Positions 14,320-47,666 of a DNA stretch of 64,000 nt are shown here, piece after piece. The stretch covers positions 186,001 through 250,000 of the forward strand of contig JASANG010003338.1 in NCBI GenBank assembly GCA_030248215.1, in the 5' to 3' direction. Source of the stretch: Enoplolaimus lenunculus. Lineage: Eukaryota. The stretch's first letter is position 1, and each line of letters begins with the position of its first letter. Below the pieces are notes generated by a model. That model was not told the origin of the DNA. It was given only the letters and a program-made list of their open reading frames with translations, and ran no database searches. The position numbers and the translations under genes are program-made.

Positions 14320-14398
14320 GGCCGCGTGGTGTAATGGGTAGCGCGCTTCTGCTTGACTCGCGAGCGAGAGGTCCGAGGTTCGATTCCCGGCATGGCCA
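14320..14398 (+). pseudogene. tRNA-like (SINE head/pseudo-tRNA) sequence
   Basis: ggccgcg tggtgtaatgg...ggttcgattcccgg catggcca: acceptor-stem-like ends, A-box TGGTGTAATGG and B-box GGTTCGATTCC. The anticodon arm is lengthened and does not pair, so it is not a canonical tRNA. Confidence 0.65.
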
Positions 14399-20400: not shown

Positions 20401-23400
20401 CGGTGCTAAAAATGCTAGTGTTTAATTGTGAGGCGCAATGCTCTATTTCCAAAATACGTAAAAGCCGAGGGGTGACACTGACGATCTAGCACATTGTAGA
20501 ATTATCAAATGAGGTGGTTGAAGTTTAGGTCGATTAATCAACTTGAAAAAGATGGGCATCCGGAAAAGATCCCAAAATTTGTCGGTGCACCACTGAATTT
20601 TTTGAAACTCACTATGAAAACGATTATCATTAAACAGTGACCACACTTCTTCAACGTCAACAGATTCAGTGTCAAATCCAATCATTTCCGCTGATTTTAA
20701 AAGCACGTTAACCAGCGTGACGCTGCACAAAGTTCGAAGTAGGCTGAAACGGTATGCGCTGAATCGATGATGAGTATCGTATTGGCGGTGAAAAACGTTT
20801 TGCCTGAAAACAACTGTAGCCAGTACTGAACTGTTTTACCCTGAAAATTTCTGCAGCCAATAGCGATAGGTTTTGAACTGAATATGGCAGAACAACATGG
20901 GATAAAATGTCATGAATGAAGAAAACTTATTATGTCTTCCGTAACTGTAATTCCTGAAAAATTGAAAGAATCTTTTCTACTAAAAATAAATTTTAAATAA
21001 ACGTTTTAACTGTTTTCATTTAAAACATAATAGGACGAAGCCTATAAATGTTTGCAAATTTTGTAAAAACTTTACCAAACGAATAGTTGAGAAAATCCGC
21101 TCCTTGGCTCAGTATAAAACATGTGTCTGGCTTCTCATTCGCCCAAGCGGGGGAGGCGAGGGCTCAGTCCCCTTTGAAAAAGCTTGCTTGTAAGTCAACG
21201 AACATCCTTGTATGCCCCTACTAAAAAATTTTAGCCCCCCCCTGAACAACTTAGGCCAATGTATAGAACAGGCTGTAACAGTAGTGTAAACATATTCCAA
21301 AGCATGCGCCTAAAACTGAACACCAAGCCTAAACTGTAAGAATCACCTTATACCTATGTCTAGGCTGCAGCATATAAGCATAGGCAAGACATAGTGTAAA
21401 GCTTAAGCTTACTCTATTGCAGTCCCGCAGAACAACTTTCCGCCTTGATCTTCAGTTGATCCAAAATTATAAAAGGAAGGTTTCTTGTGTTACCAACAGA
21501 AAGTGTTCCTAGCACATGTAGCGCCTTTCCCTGCCGTGTAAATTTTTTAATTTTAAACACAAAACTAACCAAAAACTGTTCAAATTTTGGTATTCTAAAT
21601 GTTGCTTTCTTGTCACTATCATCTCCGCATAATTCACAGCACCCAAGTAAATGGTTGGGTCGAATTTTCGCGCAGTAAAAATTTCATTTTTGATGGAACG
21701 ATTTCTTGAAAATGTATCCCATGCTTCGTTTCTAAGCGCAACAGGACTGCATCCGCACCAGTCGACAGGTCCTTTTTTGAACTCACAAAGGCCGCATGTT
21801 TTCTCTAAAAAGTAATAATCATGTCGGCTGTGAATCACATGCCTAATGTTCTCATGTTTGTGTAGTACCTGAATATCACTAGTTGGTTATAGGTCTTGCA
21901 ACTTTCGAATCAGTGAATGGCCACGTTTGAAAATCAGCTAATTTTTTCTGACTTGATTTGCTCTACATCTGTATCTGTGCAAATTTTGTGATATTCAACT
22001 GCAGGAGATTGGCAGTTTGCAAACCAATCGACAAGTGATATTAGGGGCTATACGTATTTCAGAGTATGGGAAATAATTGAAGAAGTGAAAAATGTAACTG
22101 GACGTCCTGAAAATGAAAACTAAAAGCAAATGCTAAACTTTGTTTTAGAAAAATTTCTTTCTAGCTTAAAAGTAGCTATATATGTAAGCAGACATTCCTC
22201 ACTAGTATCCAATATTCATTTGCATTTTTATTCAGTATCTACCGTAAATTCAACCTGTGAACAGTGTTTCAATTCTTTATGGATCCGTCGTTGTGACACT
22301 GCAATTTAAGCACTTCAAGCGATAAGCGTCTTAGGGCAACCTACCTCGCTGCCACGATATATGTCTCAAATTTTTTGCTCCTTGCGTTGTGCAAAATCGT
22401 GAATTATGCAACGCGGTGGCAAAAAATCCTTCTGCAGGGCTAAATCCGTATTTGAAAAAGTCGAGCAAATCAATAATCAGCGGATCGTTTTCTGAAATTC
22501 AAAATAATTTTTTAAAAACTAAAGCCAATTCCCGCAGAACGGATGGAACATCAGCCTAAAACCAAACAAACACTCTCCAAGATTTACATTCACGTCTGAG
22601 AGCAGAAATAAGTAGTTCAATGAGTCTTGGGTAGAATATCGGGAATATTGATGGTTCATGAGTCGCTCGCCAGGCCATACTGTATTTTATTTAGCACGCT
22701 CTGGCTATTAACAGTATGCGACTCAGCTGTAGTGCGAATCGGTTTCATGTTGTAAGTGTACAAATTTTATTTCGGCTTTGTCAATTTTTATTTTCTTTAT
22801 AAATTTTCATCCTGTATAGTTGTTTTGTTAGTATAAATCATAACAATTTGAGAGAACTATAGCTTACCAAATAAAACGTTCGTCTTTGGCAATATAGTTA
22901 ATGAACCTTTAGGGTTGCGCTTTGTTGACATTCGGCGCCGACCGGCACTTCCCGTCATCCGCTCGGTACCGTCCAGCGTCGTCCGTCACCCGTACACCAC
23001 CAACCGTCACCGTGCGGTATCGTACGGAAATAACTCACGTACGATGCCGTGTATTGACGAACGGTGACGGACGGCGCTGTACGGGTGACGGACGGTAATA
23101 AACGGCGACGTACGGATGACGCGTGGTGACAAACGGTGCCGTACGGGCGACGCACGGCGACGGACGGTGCCGGTCTGCACCAGACGTCAAGTATAGCACA
23201 ACCCATACTATGTAAACGTGTAATAATAGGCTTATCAATTGTGGGCTCTATGACTAAAATATGAGATTATGAAAGTAACAGTTTTATACCTAATGCCAAA
23301 TACTGCATGAATTCTTTGGTTAATAAAAACCAGTCAGATCCTCCGTCTAAGACAATCTGTTCAGGGAGCTGTCGTCTGCCGACCATCCATAAATAACTGT

Positions 23401-26400
23401 CACATTCAACAAACGTTTTAAAGTATCCTGAAGAATAAAAGTTTAAAATTTAAATATTAAAACTCTACGACATTTGTTATGCGTAAATGACTTCGCGTAC
23501 TCATTATTGTCTGCCACAGTCAATATGGACACTGTTATGGCAATGAAGTGATTAATGATTTTTTACCCGCGCTCCGCTTTACCTGCGAAAATTTTGGTTT
23601 TTTACCTGCGGGTATACTCGTGCAAAATTCCTTTACCCACTAGCACCATTTACCCGCTCTTAGTTTTTGCTTTGCGTTAAATACAATTGTGAAAATTTTA
23701 CAGTGCATTGATGTTAGCCGCTCGATTCACGTTACAAAAACTCTTCATTACTAACTTTCAAGACAAACCTTTAAGTAGAAAAATGTAACACTTGATATAT
23801 TGCACATTACGTTTATCACCAGTATAACTAGGTTGCTTGCCGATGTGTGATCAGTGAACCAAAACATTGTTGTCTGTGCAAAATTTTAGGTGGGTGCATA
23901 TTAACTATTATTTTTGACCTGTTTGTAACGTGCAGGAGGTATTTGTCTTGTTTTCACATGACAAGCATGAGAAAATACCAATAACGCGTGTAAATTATTG
24001 TGTAGAATGCCGATATGTTTTGTTGAAAAATTCCTGTCAGATTATTATTTCAATCAGTTGTATCGTTAAATCAAAGCCGTACTTTTAATTTAGTTTAGAG
24101 CAAACCAAACCGTTAGTTTAGTTAATCTAGAAAGTTATTACTGCTGGATTAGCTTAATCTTAAACCAAGTTAGTTCACGCTTTAAGAGAGTACAATGGAA
24201 AAGTACTGGAAACAAAAATTTATTGGGAGGCCAAAAGCGCCTGGCCCATAAGAATTAGGACAGTGTAAATGGATCATTATTTACCACAAATACCCCAGAT
24301 ATTGTCATAAAGTGAAAACAATTGAAAATGTTAACTTACCGGAACCATGTAAAAATGCTTTTCCATTTTCAAAAACGTTTGTGCCCATCAAATTAGTTCC
24401 GTTGTAGTGCGTGAGCAATGCTTCAAGTTCTTCGATCGATAATAGTGGCATATCTGTTTCACTGCAATACAAACATTTGAACCTTGGTCCGTAGGCATAG
24501 GAGGGCAAATGTGGCTTAACTCCTACAGCAAAACTTTGATTCTTAATCAGTTATAGCCCCGCTTATACGTCATGAGAAATCACCGCATTCCCTTTTGAAA
24601 ATATTCGGGAGTCATTTTGCATGCTAAGCTGGCTACGGGGGGGGGGGGGGTAACGGCCCTGTATGAGACATTGAGACTTCCAGTTGTTCACATGTGTTGT
24701 TCAAAAACAACAAATTGAAATTAATGATTCATCCAGGAACTTTGAACAAAAAAGAAGTTTTGAACTATGGTGGTAGCAGCAAGTGGTCGAATTCTATTCC
24801 ACGCCTCAAATAATTTTTTAACGTTTTTTAATGTTTCGTATTAACAGTATTTTAAAAATGAACAGTTATTTTAATTAAGTGGCACGCGCGATCACTCACG
24901 GATCAAAGCGAAACTCACCCAGGCGTTGGCCGCCCACACCCAGCAGGAATCAAAATCAGTATCTGCCATTTTATGATTTAATGCTTAAATTGCGTTTAGC
25001 TTTTCGTTCGTTTCGCTCGCTGGTTTTGTCAGTAATATCAAGAGTGGATGATCACTCTTTATAACAAGAGTGCGTAACTGGGTACATTCTGTGTATTAAA
25101 GAACGTACCCGGAACGCGTTGCGTTTTTGGCCTACCCCCCTTGTTTAGGGGGTCTGTATGCAGTTTTATGTCGCAAACAACATAGTTGACCCCCTTAAAT
25201 GAGGGGGGTAGGTGTACTGAAGCATGCTTTATTGTTAATCTCTTGCTTAACCCCACCCCTGATTGAGGTTGGTAGGCCAAAAACGCAACGCGTGCTGGTA
25301 CATTCTTTAATACACAGAATGTACTTAGTTGCACACTCTTGTTATAAAGGGTGATCATCCACTCTTGGTAATATGTATTGTTCGCCACCGTCATAAACTC
25401 CGACAGTTATACACAAAATATCTACACAGTGGCAGTACCTGTAATTAAGGAAATAATCCCAATTCCAGTTAGTCGAATCTTGCACTTCTCGAACGGCGTT
25501 TAACAAAACGTGCACCTGATCAATGCTTCCCCATATTACACTTTCACTGTTGGTTGTGAGTAAAATATTCGCGTATCCTTTGGTTGCATCGGCTAATTTG
25601 GCATACAGGTATGTTTGTCTCTAAAATCTAAACTTATATTTAGCACAGTCTGGCTCGGTGCCAGCTCACCTTGCCAGTGCGCTGAACATTGATCGGGAGG
25701 AGCGTACAATGGTTTTCGTTTACTTACTAGCAAAGTTCAAAACTTTCTAAGGAGGCCAAAATTGTTTAAGTGGGGGCTTTTTCTTCACAATTTTCGAAAT
25801 TTGTCGGTTATGACGTATACTTCAGTTTAGGTTACCCGTAGAATAGCGCATAATTTTAGTTTCAATAACAGATGATACCATTGCTACGCTACGTATAATA
25901 GAACAAAATTATATTCGGAAAAAATGTTTGGTCTGATACATCCATGAGTCAAAAACTTGAGGAATTAAACAAAATTAAAATATACCTTATCGACGCGTAA
26001 ATAATAGTAATGCCGCGATCTGTACAATAGTCGCAGTAAACGTGTCACCTGAAACAGATTTCGGTAATTAATGTTTTCCTCTGGCCTGTCCCGTAGCCAG
26101 CTCACGTTTCTAAGCGGGGGACTAAAAAATTTTCAAGAAGGGCACACAAGGGTTCCCAATAATTTACGAACAAAGTTGAAAATTCCAGGTGGTCTAAAAA
26201 TTTTGGCACGGGCGGAGACCCCGGATCCCCTCAGGCTATAAGCTCACCTCTGGTCAAGATTAAATTAATTCACACTTGAAACGGGAGCTCCAAGCAGCAA
26301 ACAATGCATTACCTTGATTTCCGAACACTCAGCACTAATTTTAGTTTTAGTCATACATAATACGCTAGAGAACCATTATAAAGTAACCTCAATCAACCTT

Positions 26401-29400
26401 TCCCGTGAAAAAATTTGCTCACAAGAACCATAAACACACTGGAAATAAATAGATTGACGATGAAATTAGTTTCGACAAAAACGCTAATACGGTATTACCA
26501 ACTTAGAAATATATAACCAAAATTCAGCAGTATATTTTACATTTCTTTTGAAAACAGAGAATTTCACTTTGTGAGCCAACTTTTTATTTGTTTACAGCAG
26601 TTTTTTAATTAATTTAATAATTGGAAATAAATACATTACCGTTTCTCTAATATTTCGAGTAACTTAGAAAGTGTGATATGTTTCAGCTAAAATCTCTTAA
26701 TAGCAACGTTTGAAGGCTTTCTAACTGAGTGCCGTGCTTACTGGAACCTTCACACCAAGACGCCATATTATTTTAGCCATATGTATGTCGTTCCCCAAAC
26801 AGCTATTTACCTGTTATTAATATCTACTCGCACAGATACCTGAGTTTTTAATTCTTTTCTGGGCCTATGACACCCGCGTGTGGTGTCCACTTCTGTTGTC
26901 AAGTATTAATTTAATTCTGCATGAATGTGACGTTAAACAATATCAAAATGTTACTTGTCTGTCAAGTCTGCCGTTCAGTCCAATATAAAACAATATTCGA
27001 ACCCGATGTCGGTTAATATCAATAGATTGAGGTTCAACGTATTCGATTTGTTTCTTGAATTTCGCTGAAAATACCACAGTAAAATAAAACACGAGAGCAG
27101 CGATCTATGGGGTTAGTGTAAAAAAATAGAAAAATATTGTTTGCAAAATTTATGCTAACTATCAAAACTTAATTTTTCGGCCTAAACATAACTGAATATT
27201 TAATAAACCTACGGTACTGATTAATTATTTATTAGAGTATGGCGCAATCGCTGGTGACGCTATATAACTGAATAAAGTGTGTAAGTATTGTTTTTGAGCA
27301 ATACCTATAATAGGTAACGTAACAATGTGACACTGTTAAGTAATACATAATATTTGGTAAAACTTGAAATTCTTTGCTTCAAACTTCTTTTAGTGAAACT
27401 GAATCAAATCCTGGGCAATGTTAGGATTACTTTATGTATCATCGGTTTGCATATGAAACTTTTGCAAACCTTTACCTGAAATGTGTGCCAGGCAAACATT
27501 CCAGTTTCAATGTCCACACTGCAAAAAAATGGTGAGTCAAATTGACTCTCTCCGAAATAGGCATTTCCTGACTACTCAAACTGAGTCAAAATTCGACTCC
27601 GCCTGAGTCAAATTCGATTGCAGTGCAGTGGTCTCCTTGATTCCCCATGAGCAGGCCCCTATCATTAACAATCGTCATTATTTTAATATGTAGTCGACTA
27701 AAATGGGCCTACATTTAAATGATACTCTTACCTCGAATTGATACACCTGTTGCGTATACAACAGCATGAGTCGCGCTCCCGCAATATACGTCATAGTACG
27801 GATGCAAGTGAGTAGTTTTAGTATTATTAAATGGACATTTAGCTTCTGAACAGTTCGTTTGTAAGATATCACTGGTAGTCTCGTTTGCCAAATTGTCGCC
27901 GCAAACACAATTGGTGCCGTTATAAATAGCTGAAACGGTTTTGATTATGAATGGACTATCAATTAATATTCTGGTTCCGGTGGCCCTCAGAATGGCAAAT
28001 GGGTAATGATTTCCTGTCCAAAGTCGAGCATTGAGATTACAAAGCGGAAAACGTGCATAAATATATAGCTTTGAGCTCGTGTATACTACCCCAACTCCGC
28101 ATTTAAGATTATGTCCTGGGCTAGGCTTAGGTATTGGCATAGGCAAAAGTTTAGGCTCAGGCTTAAGTTTCATGCAAACGTTTGCACTCAGGCTTTTCTA
28201 AAATTTAAGCATAAGCCTGAACATTTGTTTAAGTTCATGGCCGAAGTACTACTACAGTCTAGCTTTGTTTTAAGTACAGAAACATGATGTTTTGTATTGT
28301 TTCAAGATCATCGCTTTTAAACCAAACCAAACAATCTGCGTTTTGAATGTTCTGAACAAAATCGGTCCATGTAAAAATCAGTGGCGGAACGTGTTTATGT
28401 TTGACTAGAAAAGAGTAAGCTTAAGCTTTAGACTAATTTTTTGCTTAGATTAGGCTTATTCTTTAGGCTTAGGCTTAGGAATATGCTCGTTTTACGCTTA
28501 GGTTTAGGCTTAGGCTTAGGAATATGCTTATAATACTGCCCCGCCCATGTTCTGTACATAGGCCACAATATCGAATGCTATATATAATTAAACTAAAGCA
28601 GACTGTGTCCCTGAAGGATAACTATTAATAGTTGGTACCCATCAATTTAACAAAACCAAAATTTAAAGAAATTAACCGTGTTTCAGCCATTTCTATTAAA
28701 TTGCACCGGTATCTCTTGCACTTGATATTTTTAAATAAGCAACTGTAACGGTTTCGTACCAGCGTACAGAGCGGAAATATGAAAACAAGCACGAACGCAT
28801 ATTTCCGTTCCAAACGACGGGCTTAACGCATACACTTTTTTGTCATTCCATTGTTTCGTTGAATTAAACCAGTAACATCCTACATGTTCTCCATGCGCCG
28901 TTAAATCTGCAATATTAATATTGATTTTAAGCAACAATTTTAACCTCATTCACACGGGCAATGATTTTAAGCGGAGAAGTTGTTATTTAGCAATCAACCA
29001 TATTTGCAACCGTTAAACGTAACCTTGAAACAATTACCAACCGTCAATTAAGCCTAGAAACAATGCAGAGGAGTGGTATCCGCAGAAAATTGTTTTTTGG
29101 GGAGGGGGGCATCGAATAATCTTGGGGTTCCCGTACAATTGCATATCAAGATTGTTTATTTTTCGACCGAGTCTATTCGATGGGCACCAGCGAAGTTTGG
29201 GGGGGTCATGGCCCTCAAATGCTCCTTTGGGGACGCCTTTGAAACAATGAGTGAAAAATAGGTGGTTAGAAAAGAAAATTTTTGCGGCAAATGAATTGAA
29301 GTTTCTTTTAACTGTAGCAATGCCAAACGGATTAGCATGCTTAACTAGTCTATGTAGCCAAAAATGTATCACGTTCAAACTATTTTTGAGATTCCTAGAA

Positions 29401-31644
29401 AAATTGTACCCACCGATTAGCATAAAGACGCAAGGGAATGTAGGTGTAGCAACAAAGATCACGGTGGACACGTTCCTCCACTTTTCAAAACTGAGGGATT
29501 GTCCCCACAATTTTTGAGACGGGATGTGGCCCTATTATAAATTATGTTAAGTAAGTAGTTGTCGCGACATTTAATGTCTTCTAACTCTAAAATAAACGTC
29601 TGGCTTCTAGCTCGCTTCACTCGCAAGGTTTTACCTTAGTTTAGTTAAAAGTTTACAAGTGTGAAGATCAAGGAATGAAGTTAACCTTTTCTCACATGAA
29701 TATCTTCTATATCATATGAAATGTAATTTCAAAGTAAGATTCGATCCTCAGTCTCACGGGAGGGAGACGTTTACGATGACCACTGAGCTATAGCAGCTTG
29801 CGCACGAGCCCGATAGTGCTCTCACGTATGATGGAGATTTCGCACTGTTCATATATATGTTACAATTATTAAACACTGCTCACAGTGTGTTTATTGCTCG
29901 TATATTATTTGAATTTAGTTGCTCATAGAATACTATATAAATGAAAGTGGTTAGGTCAACTCCTTAATTGGGACCAACAGATAACAAAAATACTGCGCAT
30001 AAATTTTAAGAATTGTTTTGCACTGCTCACAGTGTTTGTATTGCTCTTATATTATTTGTATTTAGTTGCTCATAGTATACTGTATAAATGAAAGTGTTAA
30101 GGTCAAATCCTTAAATGGGACCAAAGATAAATATAGTACGAGATTTAGCACTTTTCCTTATGAATATTTTTAGTACACATTCACCATATTACGAACATGA
30201 GCCTTTTCCAAAAACTAATATTATTGGGTGAAGATTTTTTACTCGCGGTGCGCTTTACCCGCGGAAATTTTATTTCTCACCTGCGGCTGTTCGTTACCCG
30301 TTACCCGCTTTTACCCGCGCTAAATTTCGTTACCGTTACCCGCCTTTACCCGCCCTTACCTATTTCTTCGTCGTTCAATACAATTGTGCAATTTTACAGT
30401 ACATACTCGGAGGGAGGCTTGAGGGATTCGGTCAACTTATCTCCGATTCATCACCGAGAAAAACCTGGCTACAAAACTGAAGAGGCAATTCTTATACGAA
30501 ACGTTTTGTTCAATTTATGCTGTCCCCCCACTGTTGAAACCGTTCCACCGCCACTGATAAAAATATTAAATATTTGATTTGCTATGAATGAATCTTTCAA
30601 ACTCACTATGATGCGGGCATTGAGTTATCAGATTCCTGTTGTTGTACGGAATGTCTCTGTTTGTTGCAAGCTTACATGCAACATCGCGTATTTTATTTTT
30701 GCATTGAACAGTGGCTGCGCGAGATATAGCGCTTTGAGCGTCAGTATTTGGCAAGCCGCAACGGTTTTCAAATTTAGCTGTAGTAGAAGTAGTAGTAGGA
30801 GTGTCTGAGCGTCCCGTGGAAGCGTCAATCATGCTTCCCTCATAAGAGTATCGCCCTTCTGTTGTAGTTTCCTCCTGTGGTTTGGTTTGATGATAGAATA
30901 GTAATGGTGGGCTTCTCTATAATTAATGCTGGCTAATAAAACCTACATAAGCAATTTTGCACATTTCAAGAATTACAATTAGAACGTGTATTTGGAAATA
31001 ATTCTAAAGAAAGCTTGTTTTCGGTTTAATTTCATTTCAACGACCGCCGTGTTTCGGGTTGTTTGCTTATTGACCATCAGGCTGAATAATCTAGAGTTTG
31101 ATTGCTAGAATGCTTGTCCGTTAGCCTGTTGTGTTTGCAAATCCTAGCAGGAAACTCAAATTTCTAACGCAAATACGCGATAGCTATGCACCTGTCGTTT
31201 ACCTATATTCATGCTGCAAAAACAGCGATTGTCATGCATGCGAAAATTGTGCACTTTATGCAAGTTATTGAACTGAGCATTATAAAACAAGAGTGCTGTT
31301 GTTGTTAAGCTGACGTATTAGCGTGTAACATTACTTTGAGTAATGAATCAAATTCTGTATCGAAATTTATGGGTCCGGGAAGCATTTACGTAATCTATTG
31401 ATGCATATGGGCTAATTAGTAATTTTGAGCTGTACATAACCAAATACGAATTCTACTTAGGGTAGCAGGCCCTCATTGAATCAGACTGCCACTGCAGAGC
31501 CTGGCCCTTATTACATTCCCCTCTTATCCGGGTCACTGCGATAACAAAACTTACTAACGAAAAACCAATGTAGTAGATATAGAGTATTGTCTGACCGATA
31601 ATCACACAATTTAGTATGTAGAACCATTTTCGCAACGAAATCAT
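17481..31644 (-). CDS. XYLT: Protein O-xylosyltransferase (GT14; oxt/sqv-6 type with WSC domain), ~15-16 exons
   Basis: Phase-consistent exons: 31644-31555 (signal anchor), 30916-30607 (DAQSAISRAATVQCKNKIRDVAC), 28906-28760 and 27929-27732 (WSC: VGCY...CVRAC...YAAIYNGTNCVCG...CGS), 27064-26955 (VRILFYIGLNGR), 26048-25986 (HYYYLRVDK), 25620-25439 (VIWGS...WNWDYFLNYS), 24461-24340 (ETDMPL), 23427-23290 (FVECD...DGGSDWFLL), an unresolved segment in 23289-21869, 21868-21570 (VDWCGCSP...ARKFDP), 20803-20613, 20225-20092, 19420-19258, 18537-18328 (GVWVV...RFLALP), and 17710-17481 (WSSLAPDPKS, the conserved XYLT C-terminus). Confidence 0.92.
21253..21465 (-). mobile_element. TTAGGC-containing MITE family copy
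   Basis: ggccaatgtatagaacagg...gcctaa repeats...gcttaagcttact...ttccgccttgatc. Homologous to copies at ~28366-28565, ~33121-33274, ~36052-36165, ~52161-52265 and ~63213-63391. Confidence 0.7.
22910..23207. mobile_element. GC-rich MITE (TIR tagggttgcgct...agcacaaccc) in a XYLT intron
   Basis: Terminal inverted repeats and internal gacgg/ccgtc/cgtacg repeats. Homologous copies at 56669-56930 and 41722-41874, with fragments near 36170-36240 and 52930-53003. Confidence 0.8.
24637..24650 (+). repeat. Poly-G tract (14 G), G-quadruplex-prone
   Basis: Uninterrupted G run in a XYLT intron. Confidence 0.8.
25039..25367. mobile_element. Foldback/MITE with ~100-bp near-perfect inverted arms
   Basis: caagagtggatgatcactctttataacaagagtg...acgcgttgcgtttttggcctacc pairs with ggtaggccaaaaacgcaacgcgt...cactcttgttataaagggtgatcatccactcttg. 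TA lies just outside both ends. Confidence 0.85.
27516..27626. mobile_element. Short MITE (cactgcaa...ttgcagtg) with tgagtcaaa repeats
   Basis: TIR cactgcaa/ttgcagtg. The 5' ~65 bp recurs at ~52357-52425. Confidence 0.65.
28366..28565 (+). mobile_element. TTAGGC-containing MITE family copy
   Basis: ggtccatgtaaaaatcagtggcggaacg...gtaagcttaagc...(ttaggc)n...ctgtacataggcc, with imperfect TIRs. Confidence 0.75.
29735..29878 (-). repeat. Repeat with a minus-strand tRNA-like core; second copy at ~63538-63680
   Basis: Minus strand TAGCTCAGTGG...GGATCGAATC (A/B boxes). Shared flank (cgagcccga...gctctcacgt...ttaaacac) lies 5' of the tRNA-like part in both copies. Confidence 0.65.
29872..30130. repeat. 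Direct tandem duplication (~110 bp similar block, ~147 bp period)
   Basis: cactgctcacagtgt...tttagttgctcatag...ataaatgaaagtg..taggtcaa.tccttaa.tgggaccaa occurs at ~29874 and ~30021. Confidence 0.85.
30230..30400. repeat. 'tttacccgc' repeat family copy
   Basis: Tandem ttacccg motifs. Related copies at ~3935-4000, ~5310-5390, ~23560-23660, ~36580-36740 and ~36865-36930. Confidence 0.7.
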
Positions 31645-35661: not shown

Positions 35662-38600
35662 TTATCTTAAAGTTAACATAAAACTGGCAAATATCACAAA
35701 AAGTAACAGAGAAACGTCAAAATTGACAACAGTTCGACAACCAGCGCTGCTAACAGATCGCCAAAAATCTTCGAATGATTGTGTAGTTCGATGATAAGCT
35801 GGAGTTGTGAATTTTTGTTCGTAACGGCCACGTACGCTATTTTGATTATTATTACTTGACGGTTCTACTTCAGGTTTGCCTGATTGAGAATCGATAGAAG
35901 GACGACGAATGTTTTCATCATAGCGCTCGAGTGTATTTTGGTGTTCATTTCTGTCAACATCGGTGATGACACGTGGTTCGAAACCTAATGCTACCTGAAA
36001 CGAATTTTCACTTTAATCGAAGTGAAATTGGTTGTTACGTTTTTCGACTGATGTAAAGATCAGGGGCGGAACGTTTTTCGGTGGGACCACAATAATGTAA
36101 GCTTAAGTTTTAGAGTATTTTTGCTTAAACGTTTGCGTAGGCTTAGGTATGCTTATGCGAATTAATACTCTCGTACGATGCCATAGGGGCCGAACGGTGA
36201 CGCACGGCACCGGACGAAGATGAACGACGCGGCACAGTGCTGTAAAAATATAGTCAGCACTACAATGTTCTTCCAGATCCATGAGGTCATAAAGTTTTGT
36301 TTTGCATCAAACTTTATACCATTCCAAAGTCAAGTATTGGCTCGAAAAATAAGGTTTTTGACTTCTTGGCAGAAACATTGTATAAGCCAGTGGATGTTTC
36401 GTACTCAAGACTTGTGAAAAAGTTGGGGTATCATGTAAAATGCGAACATGATGTTTGAATGGGAAAACATTCAGGGTAAAAGAATCAACTCCTGTATACT
36501 AAGGATCACGTAAAGCTAAGCCTAAGCTCAAACTTTTAGCGAAGCATTTACCTAAGCCTAACGGTGATCCTAAGCCATTTTACCCGCACTGCCATTTACC
36601 CATGGAAATTTTATTTTTCACCCTCGGGTATGCCTGTGCTAAATGTCTTTACCCGTTACCCGCCTTTACCCGCGTAAAATTCTTTTACGTTACCCGCCTT
36701 TACCCGCCATTATTTTTTTCTTCTGCGTTCAATACAACTATGTACTATTCACTGCATTCTACTTATTTTTCACTCATACGGTAAAAACAGCTAAACAATG
36801 CAAGTTTTTTCTACGTTATCTGGTTTCAAATTGTTTATGAAAGTTATATCTTGGTAATGAATCGCAGATTTTTACCTGCGCTTTGAAATTCTTGAACCAG
36901 CGGGTATACCTGCGTCAAAATTTTCTTACACGTGCGAGTACCCGCGAGTAGCATGCAGCTCTGTGTTAATCGTTGATACCTGTTGGTCAAACAGCGGAGC
37001 TTGATTACAGTTATCTGTCTTGCAAACACAGTACTGAACATAACCATCCCAGGCATCGCCACATCCGTCATGAACTACTGAAGTGCCAGGATATTGCCGT
37101 TCATGATCGTGTTCCGATATACATCGTTTCTCCATTGAATATTTACCTTAAAATATTAACCAAAACTGTTTCTAAAAATACGACAATCAGTTTAATCATT
37201 AATGCAGCGTTCTGAGTAACATTTTCCTGCCGGGTACCAAAAACGACATATATAGTAGGGCTAACGAGTGGCAGTTTTCATAAGTGCAGCTGGTTTAGTC
37301 GTTGATAGATCTCATACAGGTGTATGCAAATGCCTCTCGTTGTTAACCATGAAAATGAAACAAAGCCTAAGTGATTAGTGTAGCGTAAGATCTGAAGAAA
37401 TGTAATAATGCATTTTAGCTGAAATAGAATCATACTGATTTGAACTGTTGAGCAGTACTACTTTTAAGGCGTTCGCCTCCGCATATTGCTTGGTATATTT
37501 CTTGGCCTAAAGCCTAAGTGTAAGCATGTGGCCGCAATATTAACAACAGAAACAAACACCTTAAAACAATATCGCGCACCAAGTTTACGTATCGCTTCGA
37601 AATAGTGGATCTCATTTATGTATACAGTACATTATAGGCACAAAACTTAGCAGTGACATACATATCGTTGGTTTTCCAGCTTTAATAATATTACTTAGCT
37701 AACCGTTTGGATGTTTAGTCAACCTTGACAAACAGTAAATGGTCGTATTAGTCGGATAGTGTCCGCTGCAGTCGGAATCAAACTGTGCCGAACAGTCGGT
37801 TGCATAGAGCAAATCGGTTTCTGTACATTGCTTGCAATAATTTGAGCCCTAAATCACAATGCCTTCAACGTACGCAAGCTAAATCCAACAGTGTTCAAGA
37901 ATATTTTCAAGAAATTCTCATTGAGTTCAAGTTGAATTGAACGTTTACATTTTTAATTTGTAGATTGAGCAATTAGTTTGAACTCGCGAACCACCCATTG
38001 CCAGTTGGCGATAATACTTAAATAGTCAGCTTGTCAAAACAAATAAACAAATTGCAAAAATGCTATACTTGGATACGCAACTGACATATGTTTGAGGGAC
38101 TAAAATTCAAGTTGTTCTCTATGCCTAAGCCAAAGCCATGATTATGCTAAAACTGAAAATATCGAAAACTGACTGATAGTGTACAAAAGCTAAAGTAAAA
38201 TCTACCTTCACAGTACGAAATACTTTTAAATATTTTTCTCCAGTGTACCTTCAGGATCCTAAGCTATTAATTTGACTTTAGCTCGAGCCTTACAAGCTAA
38301 AAAAACTATTCATCTCAAAACTTGTGTCACCTTTAAATCTTTCTGTGCCCCAGTGGACATATAACTTGTTGACGTTTTAGGTGTAAGATCCACTGAAATT
38401 GGCTGGGGTTCGTCCAGTTGAACACTTGGATACGATTTAATTTGAGCATCAATTGTGATTTGGTTGCAGCTTGATTCAGAGCATACACAGAATCGGGTTC
38501 GGCCGTCTGCGGTCATGAAACACCGCTCTTTTGAGCGGTTATTAAGTAAAGTAAGTACTTGAGCACCGTATATGCTTGCAAGCGCCGCATCAGAAGAACA

Positions 38601-41600
38601 GAATTTTTCAATTGCTTGCTTTTCTATAAGTAAATATTAAACCTTTCACACATGAAGCATACTGTGAGCAACTTAACGCAAACTGTACGCAATGCGCAGT
38701 GATTAGTAATTACAACATCGCTTGAAATTAGGGTTTTATATGAAATAGAAAATATTCACGGGATGAAATAGAAAATATTCACGGGAGAATGGGTTAAAAA
38801 TTAATCGCAAAGTTTATTTTAAGTCGGTTACGGTTCTGTAGAAATAAATTTTAATTTCCTTTTAATATGGTTTAAAGAAGTGCCAAGACCTTTTAACAAA
38901 AAAACCATTTCGATAAGTTCAAATTATATATCGGTAGTAAATATAATTGCATTCTGTAAATTTGCAAAATTGATTGATTCAAGCCCCATTCATCACACGT
39001 GCAAGATTTTCCACCGAGAACTCGCAGCTGCAACCTGCACGAAATACTTGCAGCTGCAAGTATTTTCAAAGGAACATTCCGATTGACCAATGAAACTGCA
39101 GCTGCAAGAACTTCAAAGCTACTTTGCGACCAAACCTGCGCATGCAAGTTGCACGTGCAAGTTTTCGAAACCTAAGCCTATTAATCCAGGAATTGTGTGG
39201 GGAACACTTTGGGTGGAAGTGAAACAAGAAGCACGACACGACCTGTTTAATTTGGCCAATTTTTTAGTTTGGCTGTAATCAAATTAACTTGAAGAACGCG
39301 TATTTACCGCTCGCAATAATCGTATTACGCGTAACACATCGAATAGTTGCTGTTGTTGGGAAATTGTTCAAGTTGCACGGCAACAGTTTCGATTCTGTAC
39401 ATTCAGCAGGATCGTCGAGTTCTGACTCAGAGCACGTCGCACACTGAAGGACGTCAAAATCTGTGCAGCAAAAAGTATATAATTGGATATGGGATGCGAA
39501 CGCAGCGATAGTCTTGAAACCCAGATAAAGAGTCCTAGTGAACGTTGTTGAAACATTTGCAACCCTACTAGTTCTCATTTAATTTGCATGCATGTATGTG
39601 TCATTGATCAAGTCGTAATTGAGCCCAATTCTGAATTGGGCTAGACCAAAGTGGAATAACGACTTGTGCTAACCCAAGGCGGAATCATTTCTGATAAAGC
39701 GGTGCGTATTCTGATTGGTTACTTGATAGCGGTAAATTAAAGCAAATCTAACTGTTTGGTAGCCAATAGGTACTTAACCACTACTTGGTCAATCAGAAAA
39801 TAGCGCGGCAATAAGGTAGTAACCAATCACAGGGCGTACGCTGGTAGCAGAGAAAGAATTACGTCGTGGGCTAGCGCAAGTCGTAATTTCGCGCTGGACT
39901 AGTCCAATTCAGAATTGGGCTGATTTACGGCTTGGGCTACGACATATATATTGTTATTCTTTCAAAACATGGAAAGAAAAGTTGGAAAGCTGCCCAAAAT
40001 GTGTATGTGGGACATTTCAGGTTTATGACATAATAATACACACACGAGGTAGACACTGCAGGCATATATGTCGATAATTTTTGTCCAGGTTTGATCAGGA
40101 ACCTTTTTAAAATTGTTAAAGCAAGAACCCGTTATAAATTTTTTAATAGTACATAACCGTATTCTTTCTACAATCCAGGCCGCACCCCTGAATACATATC
40201 GTTAAAGTAGGCAATCGAAAGTCAATGTATATTGCTGGTAAACAGTAAAGCTAACCACAAATGCAACTACTTTTCAGCATTTTAGAGCGAGTTTGAAGAA
40301 ACTGTTTGAAATTTGCCGCCCGAACGCATATCAGATCTCTGGTTTCAGCTCTGGTCCTTGTTTTTATAATCAATAAAAGTTATAAAAACGTAACCTTGTG
40401 GGATTTTAGGAACTTCCACCCCGCTTGACAACACTGGAGACGACAATGCTGCAGTAGGTTCTGATTTTGAAGTTGGTTCACCAACGCTTAAGACCGGTTC
40501 TTGTAGTTTCGTTGGTCTTTCAGGTTGTGGTTCTGGCTCTACAGCTGCGATTGGTGATAAAATGCCTTCAGAATAGTTAGGATCCGGCTCTGAGTAAGCA
40601 ATATTTGTATTTGATACTGGTCGAACCTAAAAAATTGAATTAATCAGAGTTTTAATAAGTCTGTAAAACACACCGTATTGACAAATGCAAACTTCAAAAG
40701 AAAAGGATTTGAAATGTACGATTAAGACAAATAATTTCTTCATCCAAATTTTATTTCTGTTCGTAAATAGCGAAGTTGAGCCGTCGTTGAAATAGATTTT
40801 TTGGCGAGAAAACTCGTTAATATAACAAGTGGAAACACATGCGGTGTGTTGAAAACAACCCCACTGTTCTAAAACTTACATTATAAGTTAAAGCCTCGAC
40901 TAACGAGTACTTGCTTAGATTTCTTGTTTACGGCAATTAACTTTTTTTTTCAAAAGATAAATAAAATATTTTAGTAAGTTTTTTTCAGTTTTAAAAGCTA
41001 AAAGGAATTTTCTTTCATTTGGAACTTGTTTTGTATTACTACATTTGTTACATTTTGTTGTTTTTCCTTTATTTCTCATTCTTCCGTTGGAGTATTTTTC
41101 AGAACGCGGCGCTAAAATGATTTTGGGTTTTTCTAAACATTCTATATACTTGTTTATCATTAAGTTTTCGATTGTTCTAATTTGAACAAGCGGCTAAATC
41201 TACTGCGGTATTATTTAAAACAATATATTTAAAAATCACTGACTTATACGCACATGTCGGACCAGCCGAAGTCTCTCCTGCGTGTAAAGGCCCTGAATGC
41301 TGATGGAGCGGACACTTAAGACTTTCTGACTGCTTTAGCTAAGTCTGCATAACGATATACATATATTATATATTGTATATATAACAACCGGTAGTTTTGT
41401 TTTTATTTTATATGTTTTTACAAATTAATCAGGCGTTGTACTGAAGCTTGGCCCAGTCAAATTTTGTGATATCAGTTTTCTTGCTGATAAGACATACAAA
41501 ACTAATTCTCGTCACTGCGAAATTGAAGAACTAAACGAAGAACTGAACCTTATACAGTCTGCATTTATGCCCTTGTACAGTTTGTATTTAAGCCCGTGTA

Positions 41601-44600
41601 CAGTTTCCCGGTAGAGTTTTCAAACTTTTCAGACATTGGTATAGCACTATATATATATATATATTGCGTTTTTAGTCTTAGTTCTTGCTTTTCGCTCCGT
41701 TATGTTTAGCATGTCATAGCTTTCGGGTTGCGTTGTACTTATCGGCGCGCGGCCGCATGCGGTAATTTTTGATAAAGTTTTACAGCGCCGCGCGCCGGCG
41801 CCCGGCGACGTTCGGCGGCGCTCGGCGGCTTTCAGCGGTGTTCGGCGGCTTGCAGCAAGTATAGCGCAACTCTTACAGTGTCACATTATTCTTATAACAT
41901 AATTATGTATATAATCAACTTTAAAACGTATTATTTGAAATGTTTATTCTTATAACAAATTTTTAAAATCTGTTCTATTTTCAAATTAGAATTGACCTTG
42001 GTTTTAGCATGATAAAGATACCGTTTTTGAAAATGCATGGTTTAGGCAACGACTTTGTAGCCGTCGACAAATGTAGCGTTGCGCAGCTCACGAACGACAC
42101 GCTCGTCAAGTTAGCGATTTGTATTAGTAACCGTAAAACGGGTATTGGTTGTGATCAATTTCTACTGTTCGACTACAAGCAGCCGCATATTAAAAATTTT
42201 AGCTGTAAATCTTTAGCACAAAATAAACGATTAGATAGAAAAATTTCTGAGAATACTCGAAACATTGCTGAAGGCAAAGGCGGCGATTCTACAGTTCTAG
42301 TATTCACAATGGCAATATACAACTGTGATGGATCTATTGGAATGGCATGTGGGAACGCAAGCCGTTGTGTGGCCCGACTATTAGCTGAAATGTACAACGT
42401 TAGTCATTTGAAGCTCCAAGTTGCCAATCGCATTCTAGATTGTTACGGTAATCATCCGAATAATATGGCAGATTGATATTTATTTTACTCTTCCAGAAGC
42501 TATTCCACTATTGTTCTGTTATGGACCATTTTTTTATTTTTAATACACACTTCTTTTATATCATTTCTTCTCGGCAGACCGAAGCATTTTCACCCATTGC
42601 CATGTCCGCTAATCTTTTTTCTGGATAAAAGTTTATTCGGGTTGTCTGAGAGTCTGTTTTGAACAGTGTAGGGCATTATTCTACTTTGGCCTCCGGATTA
42701 AATGTCCTGGTCTCTGGTAGGGTTTCTGAAACTCTACTTAAGTTTAAGTACGATTTAAGTACTGTGCTAAGTATATGATTACTTAACCATTTGGTCGTTT
42801 TTAAAAGCTTAGTTTCGTTAAGTAAATACTTTAAATCGCTGACTTAATTTGATAACAGACTTTTAGTTCTGGCATATTATCGATCTAATTGAAAATGTAG
42901 ACTCATGGTGCCTCATTAATGTAAATCAAATCTATGGCTTTCTTGCTAAGACAATGGCTCGTATTTGGTGGTTCATTGTTTTTGGTCAAAAAGTCAAGCA
43001 TTTAGTTAAGTCTGCGACTTAAGTAATTACTCAAGTATAACTTAAGTAAATACTTAAGTACGGTTTCAAAAATCCAGGTTCCACTAACAGAGTCTAATAG
43101 GCACGCACACTCCTATTGAATAGAAATCAACATAGAATGGAATTGAATACCCGCTCTAATTACACCCACCCTTATTCGGGTCACTACCGTATTTACTAAA
43201 GCTTTGAAAATCGATTTCGAAACGAATCCAGACAATCAAGACGACTCCGGCCAGCAAAATGATTTTGAAGAAAGCTCAGAGATTGATGAAACTTCTTGTA
43301 TTTCGGCACAGTATCAAAATATATGCTCAAATGAACCAACAAGACAGGTCACCGTTGATATGGGGACAGCAAATTTCAATAAACCATGGATGCTGTATTC
43401 AGACACTGACATAGTTTCAAAATTAGTTAGCCTACCATTGTGTTCAAACAATAACCCAATCGTGTCTGTCGCATGTGTTGATATGGGCAACCCGCATTTA
43501 GTAATTTTTCTCACTCATATTCCAAGTAAATCGACGCTAATTGAAATCGGGCAGTATTTTCAACGCAAACAAATATTTACAGCAGGTATTAACGTTAACT
43601 TTGCGGTCGTTCAATCAGCAAATGCGGTTGAAGTAACAACGTATGAACGTGGGGTAAATAATTTAACACTGGCTTGTGGCAGTGGAGCATGCGCTGTATT
43701 TGCTACTGGATGGAAAGCTGGATTCACCAACGATAAAGTGTGCGTTCAGTTTAGTTCAGGACGGTTATGGGTTCAATGGAAGGATGGTAGGCCTAACGAA
43801 GGAATCACTCTGACTGGACCGGCTACATATGTAGCGAGCGGAGAATATTTATTTGACAGCTCACATTTTTGAAGCCAAGGGATTATTTTGAAAAGGTTTA
43901 GCTCGCTGGAAAATCGCGTGTTTCCTTAATGCGTCTTCTACAATAGCTTTGATGCCCTCTCTGAAGTCTTGACCTGGGTACGGGCCTGGTTTAAACTCAT
44001 CGTGTTCTTGAGTTAGACTCTCACATCGGCTTGAATGGAACGGTTGCTTACCTGAGTTCTGACCGCTGTAGCGTTTGGATGGTATATTGCTGCCACTCGC
44101 TGTACAATATTCGGCTGAAATTGTATTTTGATGTTCGACAGTTTCATGATTTTAAAATAAAATAACAACGTATTCTCTCCTGGTTTTGCGCTTAACTATG
44201 GCTTATATTCTCAAATGCGTATAGCACTTATCGGCAGTTGCCGATAGGTTTTTAGACTGACGAATTATTGCAGTTGCGCATTCTTAAATTGGTACAGGAG
44301 TTAGAGCAAATCAGATGCGTTAAATGTGCAAAATTTTGACCTCACATTTTACTGGTTCCAAAGTTACAAAATCAATCAAAACTGCTGACGGGTACTAGAG
44401 ACATTTGAGAATACAGCCCTTGGTTATATGGTATAATGTTTGTAGCACCAATCCCCAGTTAGCAATATGTGTAATATCTTTCGAACTAGTAAATATTTCG
44501 TTTCTATATTTAAGACTATTTGTTTCTTATACATCCTACTTCTGCTGCGTAATTTTCGGTACCAACAACTGCAGTAGTTTATAAAGTTAAAAAACCTATC

Positions 44601-47600
44601 GCTAACTGGTTCTTTTTGCTAATTGCTATGCTGCATTCATTTGATACACACACAGAAAGACACTGCATATTGCAAAAATTGCATTCGTCCGCCTGAGTGA
44701 GGCATTGCAGGCTCACTATGACAGCCGTCAGTTTTCTGACTACAGTGAATAAATTAGCCATTAAACGTACGTATAGCAGTAAAGCTAATTTCAATTAACG
44801 TTTAGTTCAACTTTGATCATAAATCACGTAACTTCGCACTTAACATTAAAAATATCATCTAAACGCTGTAATAAAAACACTTACTTGACCTTTAGCAGTT
44901 GACTGCAGCTGAATCAAACCAGTGTTGGAGTGATCGTTTCCAGCGGGTACCGTTGGATTAACAATTGCTGGACGTCGTCGCGGAAACTGTTGTAAATTGC
45001 GATAATACTGAGCGAGCCGAGCGTGGGCTGCTGGCGAATTAAATGCCGGATTTTGTAGCGCTCCGATTAAATATTGTCCAGGCAAGGGACCAGGAGCAGT
45101 AGCATCAGTAGATACACGCCCACTTGTTGCTTGAGGGTTCGATGCGGTGTCAAATCGCGAAGCAAATTGTAGCCGCGGTGATAAAATGTCGTGGGAACTG
45201 GACGGGGGTCGGCGGAAACGCTTTCTAGTGGGCAAAGCGCTTGCTGGTGGTAAGTTGACGTTCAGCGACGGTTGAATGACCAGTATACGTTCGTCATATG
45301 CTGAATCAGGCAGAGACGGCGACTGGATAGGTTTCAACGCTGAATTTACCTGAAATTTGTCAAAAAAATAACACTTTAACTTATTAGTATGTTTTGAGAT
45401 AAAGTTTTTAGATATTTATTTTAAAAAATAGAAATATGACCCCGAATGGATTGAATTTATTTTTGACACGGGTAAGTTTTCCACGCTAGCACATCCTTTT
45501 GATGGCGCCCAGCAAAACAAATATTGAAATCGTCAATCTGAACAACAGCTTACAAAATTTTCTACAGCGTTTCAATTATACCTGCTTTTGATCAAATTTC
45601 GCAAATAAATTTTCGTAAAATTACTAAAGGATTATATGAACAGAAGCGTTTAATACAACTTCGAAAAATTAATAATTCGGACCCCAGTTTCACTGGAACC
45701 GGCCAGAGATCAGTTTACATGAATGAGTTTCTATACTTAATTATTTCACAGTTACGTTTGAGAGAATAATAAACAATTGTGTTTCGTTTTAGCCAACTAA
45801 AATTACGATATCATTAAACTAAACAAGTATGCGTACCTGAGCGGTTTGAACTTCACCATCTAAACTGAGAGAAATTTCAGGCGTTGGAGGCGCAGCGGCA
45901 CCAGCATGAATTAATGCGATCGCCGAATAACTTCGATTCAACGTATCGATTTGACTAGCAAGTGATTTTTGGTTGCAAAAATCGTGATTGCATACGCACA
46001 CACTTGTGTCCGGATTCGCAGCGAAACACGTTCGAGACGGTTGGCCGCCGTTATTGCGAATGAATTCTTCTTCGGATATGCATTCTTTTGAGATCGAATA
46101 ATCACCTAAAACACAGAGAACACTCAAAACTACATTTGTACTGCTTGGAAGTATTTTTAAAGCTGAACATATGCAAAGCATTCAAACTGCCAATTTTCTG
46201 ACACGACAAAGATTTATGTTTATCCTAGTGATCATTCGCATGTCTTGTTTTGTATGGTTCGGTATTCCTGATTAGCATTCATAATAATCTATAGGTGGAC
46301 TGAAATTTGTATTTCTATTGCATGATCTGGACTCAATGATGGAGTATGACCTAACGTTGTTTTGAAGCCAGTTTGCCTTGCAGATCCCCAAAACGAACGT
46401 CATGCAAGGCAAGATTACAAGGAGTTTTTTTTTTCAAAATTGTACAAATTCGTCTTAAAATGCTGGATTCAGCGGCTTTTACCTGGTGCAAAGTTTGTTT
46501 TGACTGTTTTACACAAAACGCTCGTGCCTTTTGGCAATTTTGGATGCATTGTCGACGGGTTGCATTCAACTTGAAATTGTGATGAGCATTCGCCACGTTC
46601 TGTCGGGCCACACACGTAGCATTTTATGGCAAAACCTGTAATTAAAATGACAGAGTGCTTCTAGAAATCAATTAGGTCAATCCTGAAATGCTCATGCATC
46701 ACATCTGCATGCCGACTAGTGCCAAGATTCACTCGATTGAATTTCGGTTAAACCAGCACACCAGTTTCGTGAAGTTATCATGGATTTGCTTGCGCGTAGT
46801 CTCGCTTTCACGCATTTTATTCGGTCAATAATAGACAAATTTGACATAAATTTGTTTGAAAGGGTGCTTAAAGGACAGATGCGCTTCCGAAATTTCTGAA
46901 GAAACAAATAAACTTTATACGTTTTTAAATAGTTTGCAGCAAAGGTGTACGTAGGTAGAGATTTTTTAATAAGTTTGCGTTTTTCCCGTGGAAATTTTAT
47001 CTTTCACCCGTGGGTCTATACGCGCAGAAAAAGTTGTCTAATTTACTAGTGTACTGTTCCTTGGTGTCCATTTACGTCACAAAAAGTTCTATAGTAACTG
47101 GATGGGTGCAATCGGAGGTGAAAAATACTCAGCTTAATTTCACCAAGTTTTGCCGATTCTGGAGTTCGCGGTTTGACATACCTACGCAACGCGGTTACGA
47201 TACGTCCAAATTGTGGAGTTAGAAAAATTTTCCGCAATGTTGTCAAAAGTTAGTCTTTAAGTCACTTTTTAAAAGTCTCTGTAAGTAACACTTCAAAAAT
47301 TACTCGAAAGTCAGTCGGGGCGGTGATTTGACGATCGTAGAGAAGGGTGCACCTGACCGAATGGTCATCGGGGGCCGAAGAATTGCAAGGGTTGTGGAGT
47401 CATGATAGTTCCGGCGAATGTGTATTATATGGCAAGGTTCCACTAGAAAGTTTGTGCTAACCTTAACACTGGAAATCTGTTCAGTTTACGATTAAAACGG
47501 GTATTATTTGAACATTTGTCAAAAAATGCGGAAAGTTACTAATTTTGGACTGATAGTTGAAAAATATTTTGGTTCGCTTCATTGTTTTTGCATTAAAATA

Positions 47601-47666
47601 CTTACATTGTGGAATGTAAACACACGCAGCTGCGATAATTGCAAAGTAAATGTTTAACGGTTTCAT
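35662..47666 (-). CDS. Secreted, probably GPI-anchored protein with three 8-Cys Ly6/uPAR (three-finger)-like modules and Pro/Ser-rich linkers; 11 exons, 777 aa
   Basis: Exons 47666-47606 (signal peptide MKPLNIYFAIIAAACVYIPQ), 46635-46483 (IKCYVC), 46105-45837 (CVCNHDFCN), 45349-44885, 44114-44052, 40626-40395, 39460-39308 (LQCATC), 38623-38331 (FCVCSESSCN), 37848-37704 (YCKQC), 37146-36980 (YCVCKTDNCN) and 35994-35662 (SSAG followed by the hydrophobic tail LLLFVIFASFMLTLR*). All junctions are GT-AG and phase-consistent, totalling 2334 nt. Confidence 0.85.
38741..38787. repeat. 23-bp perfect tandem duplication
   Basis: tgaaatagaaaatattcacggga occurs twice in tandem. Confidence 0.85.
39595..39948. 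mobile_element. Palindromic foldback MITE with subterminal hairpins
   Basis: The whole element is an imperfect inverted repeat. Each arm carries its own palindrome (gcccaattctgaattgggc; tccaattcagaattggg), and ccaat/attgg motifs recur internally. Confidence 0.8.
41722..41874. mobile_element. Short GC-rich MITE copy ~135 bp upstream of the dapF start
   Basis: gggttgcgttgtactt...caagtatagcgcaactctta. Same TIR family as 22910-23207 and 56669-56930. Confidence 0.7.
42009..43872 (+). CDS. dapF: Diaminopimelate epimerase of bacterial type, 2 exons (42009-42447, 43202-43872), 369 aa
   Basis: Signature motifs KMHGLGNDF, GIGCDQ, IYNCDGS..ACGNASRC, VDMG, CVDMGNPHLV, GINVNF and YERGV...TLACGSGACA, plus the C-terminal TLTGPATYVASGEY. 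Donor TACG|GTAATC at 42448 (phase 1) joins acceptor ctaaag|CT at 43201 in frame. An alternative in-frame acceptor exists at 43231. Confidence 0.95.
42719..43077. mobile_element. MITE with cttaagta repeats inside the dapF intron
   Basis: ggtttctgaaactctacttaagt pairs imperfectly with acttaagtacggtttcaaaaatcc. Multiple internal cttaag motifs. Confidence 0.65.

Follow-up and report, generated by a model that had tools for sequence, protein, structure and literature searches.

The window analysed here is a stretch of 64,000 nucleotides (nt) from contig JASANG010003338.1 of the Enoplolaimus lenunculus assembly GCA_030248215.1 (positions 186,001 to 250,000, forward strand). A dapF gene of bacterial type, which encodes diaminopimelate (DAP) epimerase, lies on the plus strand of this window at 42009-43872. 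It is divided into two exons and is nested antisense within an intron of an animal gene. The original prediction, made from the letters alone, described it as an intact, domesticated dapF among ordinary metazoan genes. Comparison of its sequence with those of bacteria suggests that dapF was likely acquired long ago from a Rickettsiaceae-type endosymbiont. Its features and those of its surroundings are listed below in window coordinates. Published work is cited from the parts of each paper that were available to us.

35662..47666, minus strand: host gene with a signal-peptide-like start, three cysteine-rich modules, Pro/Ser-rich linkers and a hydrophobic end
40627..44884, minus strand: host-gene intron holding dapF antisense; donor and acceptor match the consensus and are both in phase 0, read by eye
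42002..42007, plus strand: acceptor-like site one base 5' of the ATG; score 6.4 with a matrix of 10 host acceptors, a score reached by ~6.5% of the AGs in the window
42009..42447, plus strand: dapF exon 1, residues 1-146, with catalytic Cys114, N14, Q50 and N105
42174..42296, plus strand: in-frame insertion 1, a loop of ~41 residues, placed by alignment and coinciding with a low-confidence model segment (61-90)
42444..42550, plus strand: decayed copy of a dispersed repeat ~100 nt long; its bases 5-6 are the donor GT (42448-42449)
42448..43201, plus strand: inferred intron, 754 nt with the acceptor originally proposed; in-frame alternatives end at 43231, 43240, 43270 and 43279
42720..43075, no strand assigned: high-copy element with terminal inverted repeats (24-nt arms, 83% complementary)
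43081..43191, minus strand: second repeat unit, whose terminal 20-30 nt are common to the left unit and which ends 10 nt before the acceptor originally proposed
43202..43872, plus strand: dapF exon 2, with catalytic Cys305, N243, H245, N277, E295 and R296; stop codon at 43870-43872
43204..43347, plus strand: insertion 2, acidic and in frame, of up to 48 residues (43-48), at the splice junction; later acceptors shorten it

Exons, active site and insertions of DapF

The open reading frames (ORFs) listed for the window include plus-strand frames at 41967-42476 and 43147-43872. When 42009-42447 and 43202-43872 are joined over GT..AG in phase 1, 369 codons with a single terminal stop are obtained, in agreement with the spliced ORF of 369 amino acid residues without frameshift that had been predicted. 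This length is one of five choices, and the donor side at 42448 fits the other in-frame acceptors as well. Exons starting at 43202, 43232, 43241, 43271 and 43280 yield proteins of 369, 359, 356, 346 and 343 residues respectively, in all of which the DapF core is whole. The first of these acceptors, which is the one originally proposed, works in frame, but is among the weaker ones (score 1.7). A sixth in-frame acceptor (43370) would delete a conserved strand of DapF. Two other arrangements are rejected. The acceptor at 43348, where the likeness to DapF resumes, is in phase 0, and no donor compatible with it retains the last strand of exon 1. The GT..AG pair at 42215-42294 within insertion 1 (80 nt; the single pair checked, by eye) destroys the frame. 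The acceptor-like site at 42002-42007 is, by its sequence and position, likely a trans-splice acceptor or an acceptor in the 5' untranslated region.

DapF inverts one stereocentre of DAP by two-base epimerisation with two cysteines. Both exons match the Pfam family DAP_epimerase (PF01678) above its cut-off, with expectation values (E) of 1.6e-12 for exon 1 and 5.6e-20 for exon 2. Exon 2 alone scores 128.9 bits with the TIGR00652 DapF model, the cut-off of which is 114.65 bits, and exon 1 adds 70.9 bits. All eight active-site motifs that had been claimed are located in the joined protein, where they begin at residues 13, 48, 104, 114, 242, 275, 294 and 304. Both catalytic cysteines are kept, Cys114 in the CGN motif and Cys305 in the CGS/T motif, and would perform the two-base epimerisation as in other DapF proteins. 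When the protein is compared with 39 homologs, it retains the residue at all 31 columns with a conservation of 95% or more, at 30 of 40 columns conserved at 80-95%, at 32 of 52 conserved at 50-80% and at 22 of 137 conserved at less than 50%. The 31 near-invariant columns include Cys114, Cys305, N14, Q50, N105, N243, H245, N277, E295 and R296. The distal-site residues that recognise DAP are also kept, with Q50, N105, N243, N277, E295 and R296 corresponding to Gln44, Asn64, Asn157, Asn190, Glu208 and Arg209 respectively. In Haemophilus influenzae DapF, the substrate is contacted by these six residues and Asn11, the counterpart of which is kept here too, and in a relative with another substrate the distal contact residues are swapped (PMC8225329). 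Mutation of such contact residues abolishes DapF activity (PMC5296763). With all active-site residues kept, the enzyme likely still works.

The protein is probably still a DAP epimerase. Retention of dapF for a changed job, as another two-cysteine racemase or epimerase (e.g. for lanthionine or glutamate) or as an enzyme altering cell-wall fragments, is rather improbable. The long branch of the protein in the trees (0.89-1.2 changes per column), its two large insertions and its 10 departures at columns conserved at 80-95% are consistent with such a change. The fold is common to O-ureidoserine and histidine racemases, and O-ureidoserine racemase is narrowly the top sequence match of exon 2 among solved structures (70.5 versus 68.3 bits). 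However, O-ureidoserine racemase has no equivalent of Arg209 in the alignment, the match to the model for bifunctional DapF/glutamate racemase is far under its cut-off, and the distal-site residues, which are swapped in relatives with other substrates (PMC8225329), are all kept.

Neither insertion has a counterpart in typical DapF in the alignment. Insertion 1 lies in a loop at which three Rickettsiaceae-type proteins (P0151, P0127 and P0125) carry insertions at the same place. Insertion 2 contains 48 open codons with the first acceptor, a run expected by chance with p = 0.048. When each exon is folded separately, both models have a confident core, and the mean predicted local distance difference test score (pLDDT) of the model is 85 for exon 1, with residues 61-90 at 55-61, and 82 for exon 2, with residues 10-43 below 50. 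DapF structures are the first structural match of the exon 2 model (E 9.6e-14). Insertion 2 is predicted from its model to be disordered, and we infer that both insertions are tolerated loops. The N-terminus starts where bacterial DapF starts, so that no leader seems to have been added unless an upstream exon uses the site at 42002-42007, and the protein presumably stays in the cytosol. P0151 has two similar in-frame insertions, the first of them in the insertion 1 loop. Another Rickettsiaceae-type DapF (L090:1039-1971) also has an in-frame insertion, and its cluster includes a record named for the palindromic element RPE5.

Position in the host genome, intron and selection

Because the donor at 44884 and the acceptor at 40627 are both in phase 0 and the flanking exons belong to one gene, dapF lies antisense within a host intron of 4.26 kb. 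The upstream host exon is open up to the donor at 44884, and the junction phases of the host gene agree across exons 3 to 7 (four junctions, by eye). The ATG at 40743 is rejected as an independent start for the host gene's left half, since by eye it has no good phase-0 donor. A Pfam search with the host gene finds nothing above the cut-off, and we take its cysteine-rich modules to be three-finger/Ly6-like from their pattern. The location among ordinary metazoan genes is thus right in that dapF is linked to host exons, but dapF is nested in a host intron rather than simply placed between genes.

The linkage is seen in short-read sequencing runs. In runs X1 and X2, which are one sample, dapF exon 1 shares a contig at 39972-42807 with a host exon, and the end of dapF exon 2 shares a contig at 43627-47526 with three host exons, both at a depth of ~35. 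The depth at dapF equals that of the adjacent single-copy DNA, and two alleles are present. Run X3, from a second sample, covers 43521-44663. The possibility that dapF represents contaminating symbiont DNA, a mis-assembly or a vertically inherited eukaryotic gene is very slight, because dapF and host exons share single contigs that have the depth of the host and two alleles, the gene contains host repeats, its codons are host-like, and exon 2 scores 100-107 bits with Rickettsiaceae-type proteins versus 62.6 bits with Arabidopsis DapF. What speaks for it is that X1-X3 are possibly the source runs of the assembly itself, that the contigs break at repeats, so that none of those listed spans the dapF intron, and that the tree is built without plant, choanoflagellate or insect DapF. 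One X2 contig has 22 extra letters somewhere in 42400-42807, mostly in the intron.

The codon use of dapF is host-like. The GC content at third codon positions is 0.376 in the dapF core and 0.357 in 13 host pieces, versus 0.252 +/- 0.028 (highest 0.305) in 13 Rickettsiaceae-type dapF genes. The per-codon score of dapF is +0.092, on a scale on which all 13 bacterial genes are negative and 12 of the 13 host pieces are positive when held out. The transfer of dapF to the animal is likely old. The host acceptors have T at -5 in 10 of 10 cases and short pyrimidine tracts; these properties, and an acceptor placed just before an ATG, fit nematodes. Three degenerate TTAGGC-type arrays lie within dispersed repeats at 28450-28520, 16563-16590 and 63258-63292. 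The counts of single hexamers in the window (TTAGGC 45, TTAGGT 49 and TTAGGG 20) do not single out TTAGGC, which is the canonical nematode telomere motif (PMC10760449). Taken together, the arrays and the acceptor properties make the host very probably a nematode.

The intron of dapF is composed of repeats. The left repeat begins in codon 146, exactly where the likeness to DapF ends, and is matched by copies at 62232 (72 identities, 36 mismatches, z score 14.6) and 7202 (70 identities, 34 mismatches, z 11.9). The copy at 7202 sits inside another intron, ~95 nt from its likely donor. The second repeat unit is matched by a copy at 31543 (z 8.2). The summed contig depth across 42538-43471 is in the thousands. 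We propose that the repeat landed at codon 146, where its fifth and sixth bases would have become the splice donor, and that a weak AG from dapF's own sequence would serve as the acceptor. The repeat may have created the intron or may have taken the place of an earlier donor. The formation of an intron with one splice site from an element and the other from the neighbouring sequence is a described mode for introners (PMC9860276), and the dapF intron would borrow its donor likewise. Unlike an introner, however, it is pieced together from three or more repeat units. The left and right units are unrelated past the first 24 nt (z 0.5), and a third element lies between them, so that the whole intron is not one repeat and its classification as an introner is rejected. 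For the same reason, the idea that the intron is a single element with terminal inverted repeats, of which the two ends would be the arms, is dropped.

The insertion is likely spliced out, as judged from the state of the exons around it. Several results weigh against this conclusion and against a functional gene. The unspliced frame reaches a stop 10 codons past the start of the repeat. The donor scores 2.9, versus 5.1-10.0 for host donors, and about one fifth of all GTs exceed 3. The in-frame acceptors at 43202, 43232, 43241, 43271 and 43280 score 1.7, 3.5, -1.0, 4.5 and 2.7 respectively, versus 6.0-10.6 for host acceptors, and the intron also contains out-of-frame AGs with scores of up to 4.8. 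The donor and acceptors score below those of each of the 10 host introns, so that the splice looks weak by its signals, with host scores inflated by training the matrix on the same 10 introns and with one of the 10 exon borders probably mis-set (the joined host reading had 6 stops). Because five to six in-frame AGs are on offer, an open joined frame is unsurprising by itself. In simulations of neutral decay, the frame and all 31 near-invariant residues survive together in 12% of runs at 0.02 changes per site. The age of the repeat is an upper bound, which is overstated if the copy belongs to another subfamily. The variants described below come from one study, in which 40 of 156 are listed.

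The weak splice signals, and the start of the repeat exactly at the end of the exon 1 likeness, would fit a reading in which the insertion killed the gene, so that no productive splice occurs and the exons are a well-preserved pseudogene. This is improbable, because the divergence of the insertion points to a high age and neither exon shows decay. Simulated survival of the frame and the 31 residues falls to 19 of 4000 runs (0.5%) at 0.05 changes per site and to 0 of 4000 at 0.10, and the branch leading to the left repeat is estimated at no more than 0.29 changes per site. The variants also argue against a pseudogene. Thirteen of the 40 listed are coding, 7 of them synonymous versus 3.6 expected (P 0.036), or 8 on the more favourable path through a codon that is hit twice (P 0.009). 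They create no stop, touch none of the 31 invariant residues, and change five residues, all in columns conserved at less than 50%. None of the 12 listed indels (22 in all) falls within an exon. With the repeat diverged by about one third, the exons clean and the variants leaning to synonymous changes, dapF is very probably alive. The gene is therefore intact in that its exons are open and its residues are kept, but only if an intron with weak, repeat-derived signals is removed. Its domestication is borne out by the linkage to host exons, host-like codons and signs of long residence and selection, but not by its splice signals, which are weak.

Of the 11 variants listed for the ~350 bases of 43521-43872, 7 cluster in a 75-base span and have half depth in X1, and this high allelic difference may reflect a second near-identical copy of the gene. 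One variant produces Asp at residue 274, the most frequent residue at that position among homologs.

Origin of dapF

The best identity of the window DapF to any of 5.8 billion proteins of 122-389 residues is 42-46%, and no close ortholog is found among them; no match at E <1e-30 is found among 1.84 billion protein representatives. The ten best-scoring proteins include two clusters with an assigned taxon, Rickettsiaceae bacterium and Rickettsia. A dapF match is present in 269 of 301 Rickettsiales genomes, with a top identity of 42%, and the 80 listed matches in named GTDB genomes include one Rickettsiaceae locus. One Rickettsiaceae assembly (G001) contains two differing dapF sequences (L081 and L082).

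The tree rows were selected manually and by score out of 277 proteins and 132 loci, with no eukaryotic DapF included by name. In the tree of 53 rows and 273 columns (LG+G4), the window DapF groups with 22 Rickettsiaceae-type rows with support of 100/99. It is sister to these 22 rows (96/93) and apart from the Wolbachia and Neoehrlichia rows. The same grouping is obtained in a 93-row tree made by a quick search under a site-mixture model, with a support of 93 in the Shimodaira-Hasegawa-like approximate likelihood ratio test, unstarred. In the 93-row tree, a dapF from a record titled Akkermansia (L065) falls among gammaproteobacteria, and its contig is likely mis-binned. When the window DapF is forced to group with four gamma/beta-proteobacterial rows, the topology is rejected (P value of the approximately unbiased test, p-AU, 0.007). 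Grouping with six Anaplasmataceae-type rows costs 46.9 log units, yet gives a p-AU of 0.068, a result that counts against our placement, and a position inside the Rickettsia-type crown is not rejected (p-AU 0.33). The trees and topology tests together suggest that the donor is likely a Rickettsiaceae-type bacterium. The Rickettsiales-style DapF of the original prediction can thereby be assigned more closely to the Rickettsiaceae-type clade; in the best tree it does not group with Wolbachia.

The DapF proteins of Rickettsia and of unnamed Rickettsiaceae share with the window DapF the two-cysteine site, all near-invariant residues and a Trp-Met pair after the domain link. Compared with them, the window DapF is no more than 44% identical and is 75-100 residues longer because of its two insertions, and its gene is split by an intron, has host-like codons and lies in an animal intron.

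Proposed role and significance

Meso-DAP is converted to lysine by LysA or is used for peptidoglycan. In an animal, DapF by itself would be of use only with DAP of bacterial origin. We propose that LL-DAP from eaten bacteria would be converted to meso-DAP by the animal DapF, and that meso-DAP would then be converted to lysine by a still unseen decarboxylase of the host. The reading that the gene is an old Rickettsiaceae-type transfer, is spliced and active, and salvages LL-DAP toward lysine in the animal is assigned a probability of about 0.4 from the sequence. Among the readings, dietary salvage ranks slightly above a role in a symbiont mosaic, followed by a changed substrate, a dead gene and an artefact. 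Two points tell against dietary salvage. Most Gram-negative food gives meso-DAP, for which no epimerase is needed, and neither lysA nor any other gene of the pathway is found among the scanned ORFs of the window, which are mostly on the minus strand. By analogy, a host lysA may be predicted elsewhere in the genome, because a decarboxylase gene accompanies dapF in every eukaryotic case that we read.

Eukaryotes with bacterial genes for the end of the DAP pathway include Herpetomonas muscarum and choanoflagellates (PMC3846528, PMC7971027). H. muscarum, a trypanosomatid, has the last two genes of the pathway and needs no symbiont partner, and DAP substitutes for lysine in some trypanosomatids (PMC3846528). 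In choanoflagellates, dapF occurs with lysAC, which is flagged but fails one filter (PMC7971027). In contrast to the animal studied here, these organisms are unicellular, and the Herpetomonas gene clusters with Bacteroidetes.

A host-symbiont mosaic pathway, as suggested originally, is possible: the active enzyme would fill a gap in the lysine or peptidoglycan (meso-DAP) pathway of a resident endosymbiont. The precedents in the mealybug and whitefly, which are in print as the original prediction had stated, are both of this kind (PMC4607527, PMC5664097). The donor clade consists of host-associated bacteria, and Rickettsiales, including two Rickettsiaceae genomes, have been recovered from marine nematodes (PMC13640793). 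This role is nonetheless unlikely on balance, because DapF has no added leader, and because the dapF matches kept by 269 of the 301 Rickettsiales genomes indicate that loss is not the rule in the order.

As in the window, bacterial dapF genes are present in the nuclear genomes of the mealybug Planococcus citri, where dapF is alphaproteobacterial, and of the whitefly Bemisia tabaci, where it is from Enterobacteriales. The whitefly dapF contains an intron too (PMC4607527, PMC4943190), and in both insects dapF is accompanied by a decarboxylase gene (PMC4607527, PMC5664097, PMC4943190). Unlike these genes, the window gene is likely in another phylum, and its gamma/beta-proteobacterial grouping is rejected as described above, with none of the four rows from Enterobacteriales. 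We infer that it is independent of the mealybug transfer from host distance only, the insect proteins not being in the tree. Among the papers listed, no published nematode dapF is found at the level of titles and abstract openings, although one might be recorded in subscription journals or in the supplementary gene-transfer lists of nematode genome papers, and the available part of the Xiphinematobacter paper does not mention dapF (PMC4607532). The DapF family and the transfer of dapF to animals are thus already known; new are the probable phylum of the host, the nesting of the gene and a predicted splice donor supplied by a repeat.

The window contains other features. A two-exon transporter gene of the major facilitator superfamily, with a repeat-filled intron, lies at 5677-7987 on the minus strand; a search of proteins of 386-2000 residues finds no homolog of it at E 1e-10, and its matches in the protein atlas are general only. 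A 166-codon open frame with a signal-peptide-like start, several cysteines and no Pfam match lies at 13138-13635 on the minus strand. An Rfam tRNA match of 32.9 bits at 14320-14398 on the plus strand is not called by ARAGORN and is likely a tRNA-derived repeat or pseudogene. A multi-exon gene at ~20000-30916 on the minus strand has weak Branch and WSC matches and is presumably a xylosyltransferase gene.

Animals are generally taken to require dietary lysine, and the animal dapF transfers found in print are those of sap-feeding insects with nutritional symbionts. A dapF retained in what is likely a nematode would represent one more acquisition, separate from these, and would record an old association of the host lineage with Rickettsiaceae rather than Wolbachia. 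The locus would also illustrate how an acquired bacterial gene can gain a repeat-derived intron and outlast the insertion. It is conceivable, though doubtful, that a nematode has assembled the end of the lysine pathway from bacterial genes. In this case a Rickettsiaceae-derived DapF, its gene having outlasted the repeat insertion by using the repeat as a splice donor, would act together with other acquired genes or a symbiont not yet described. If this is true, lysine would be non-essential for this animal, or the synthesis of a symbiont cell wall would be under host control outside insects.

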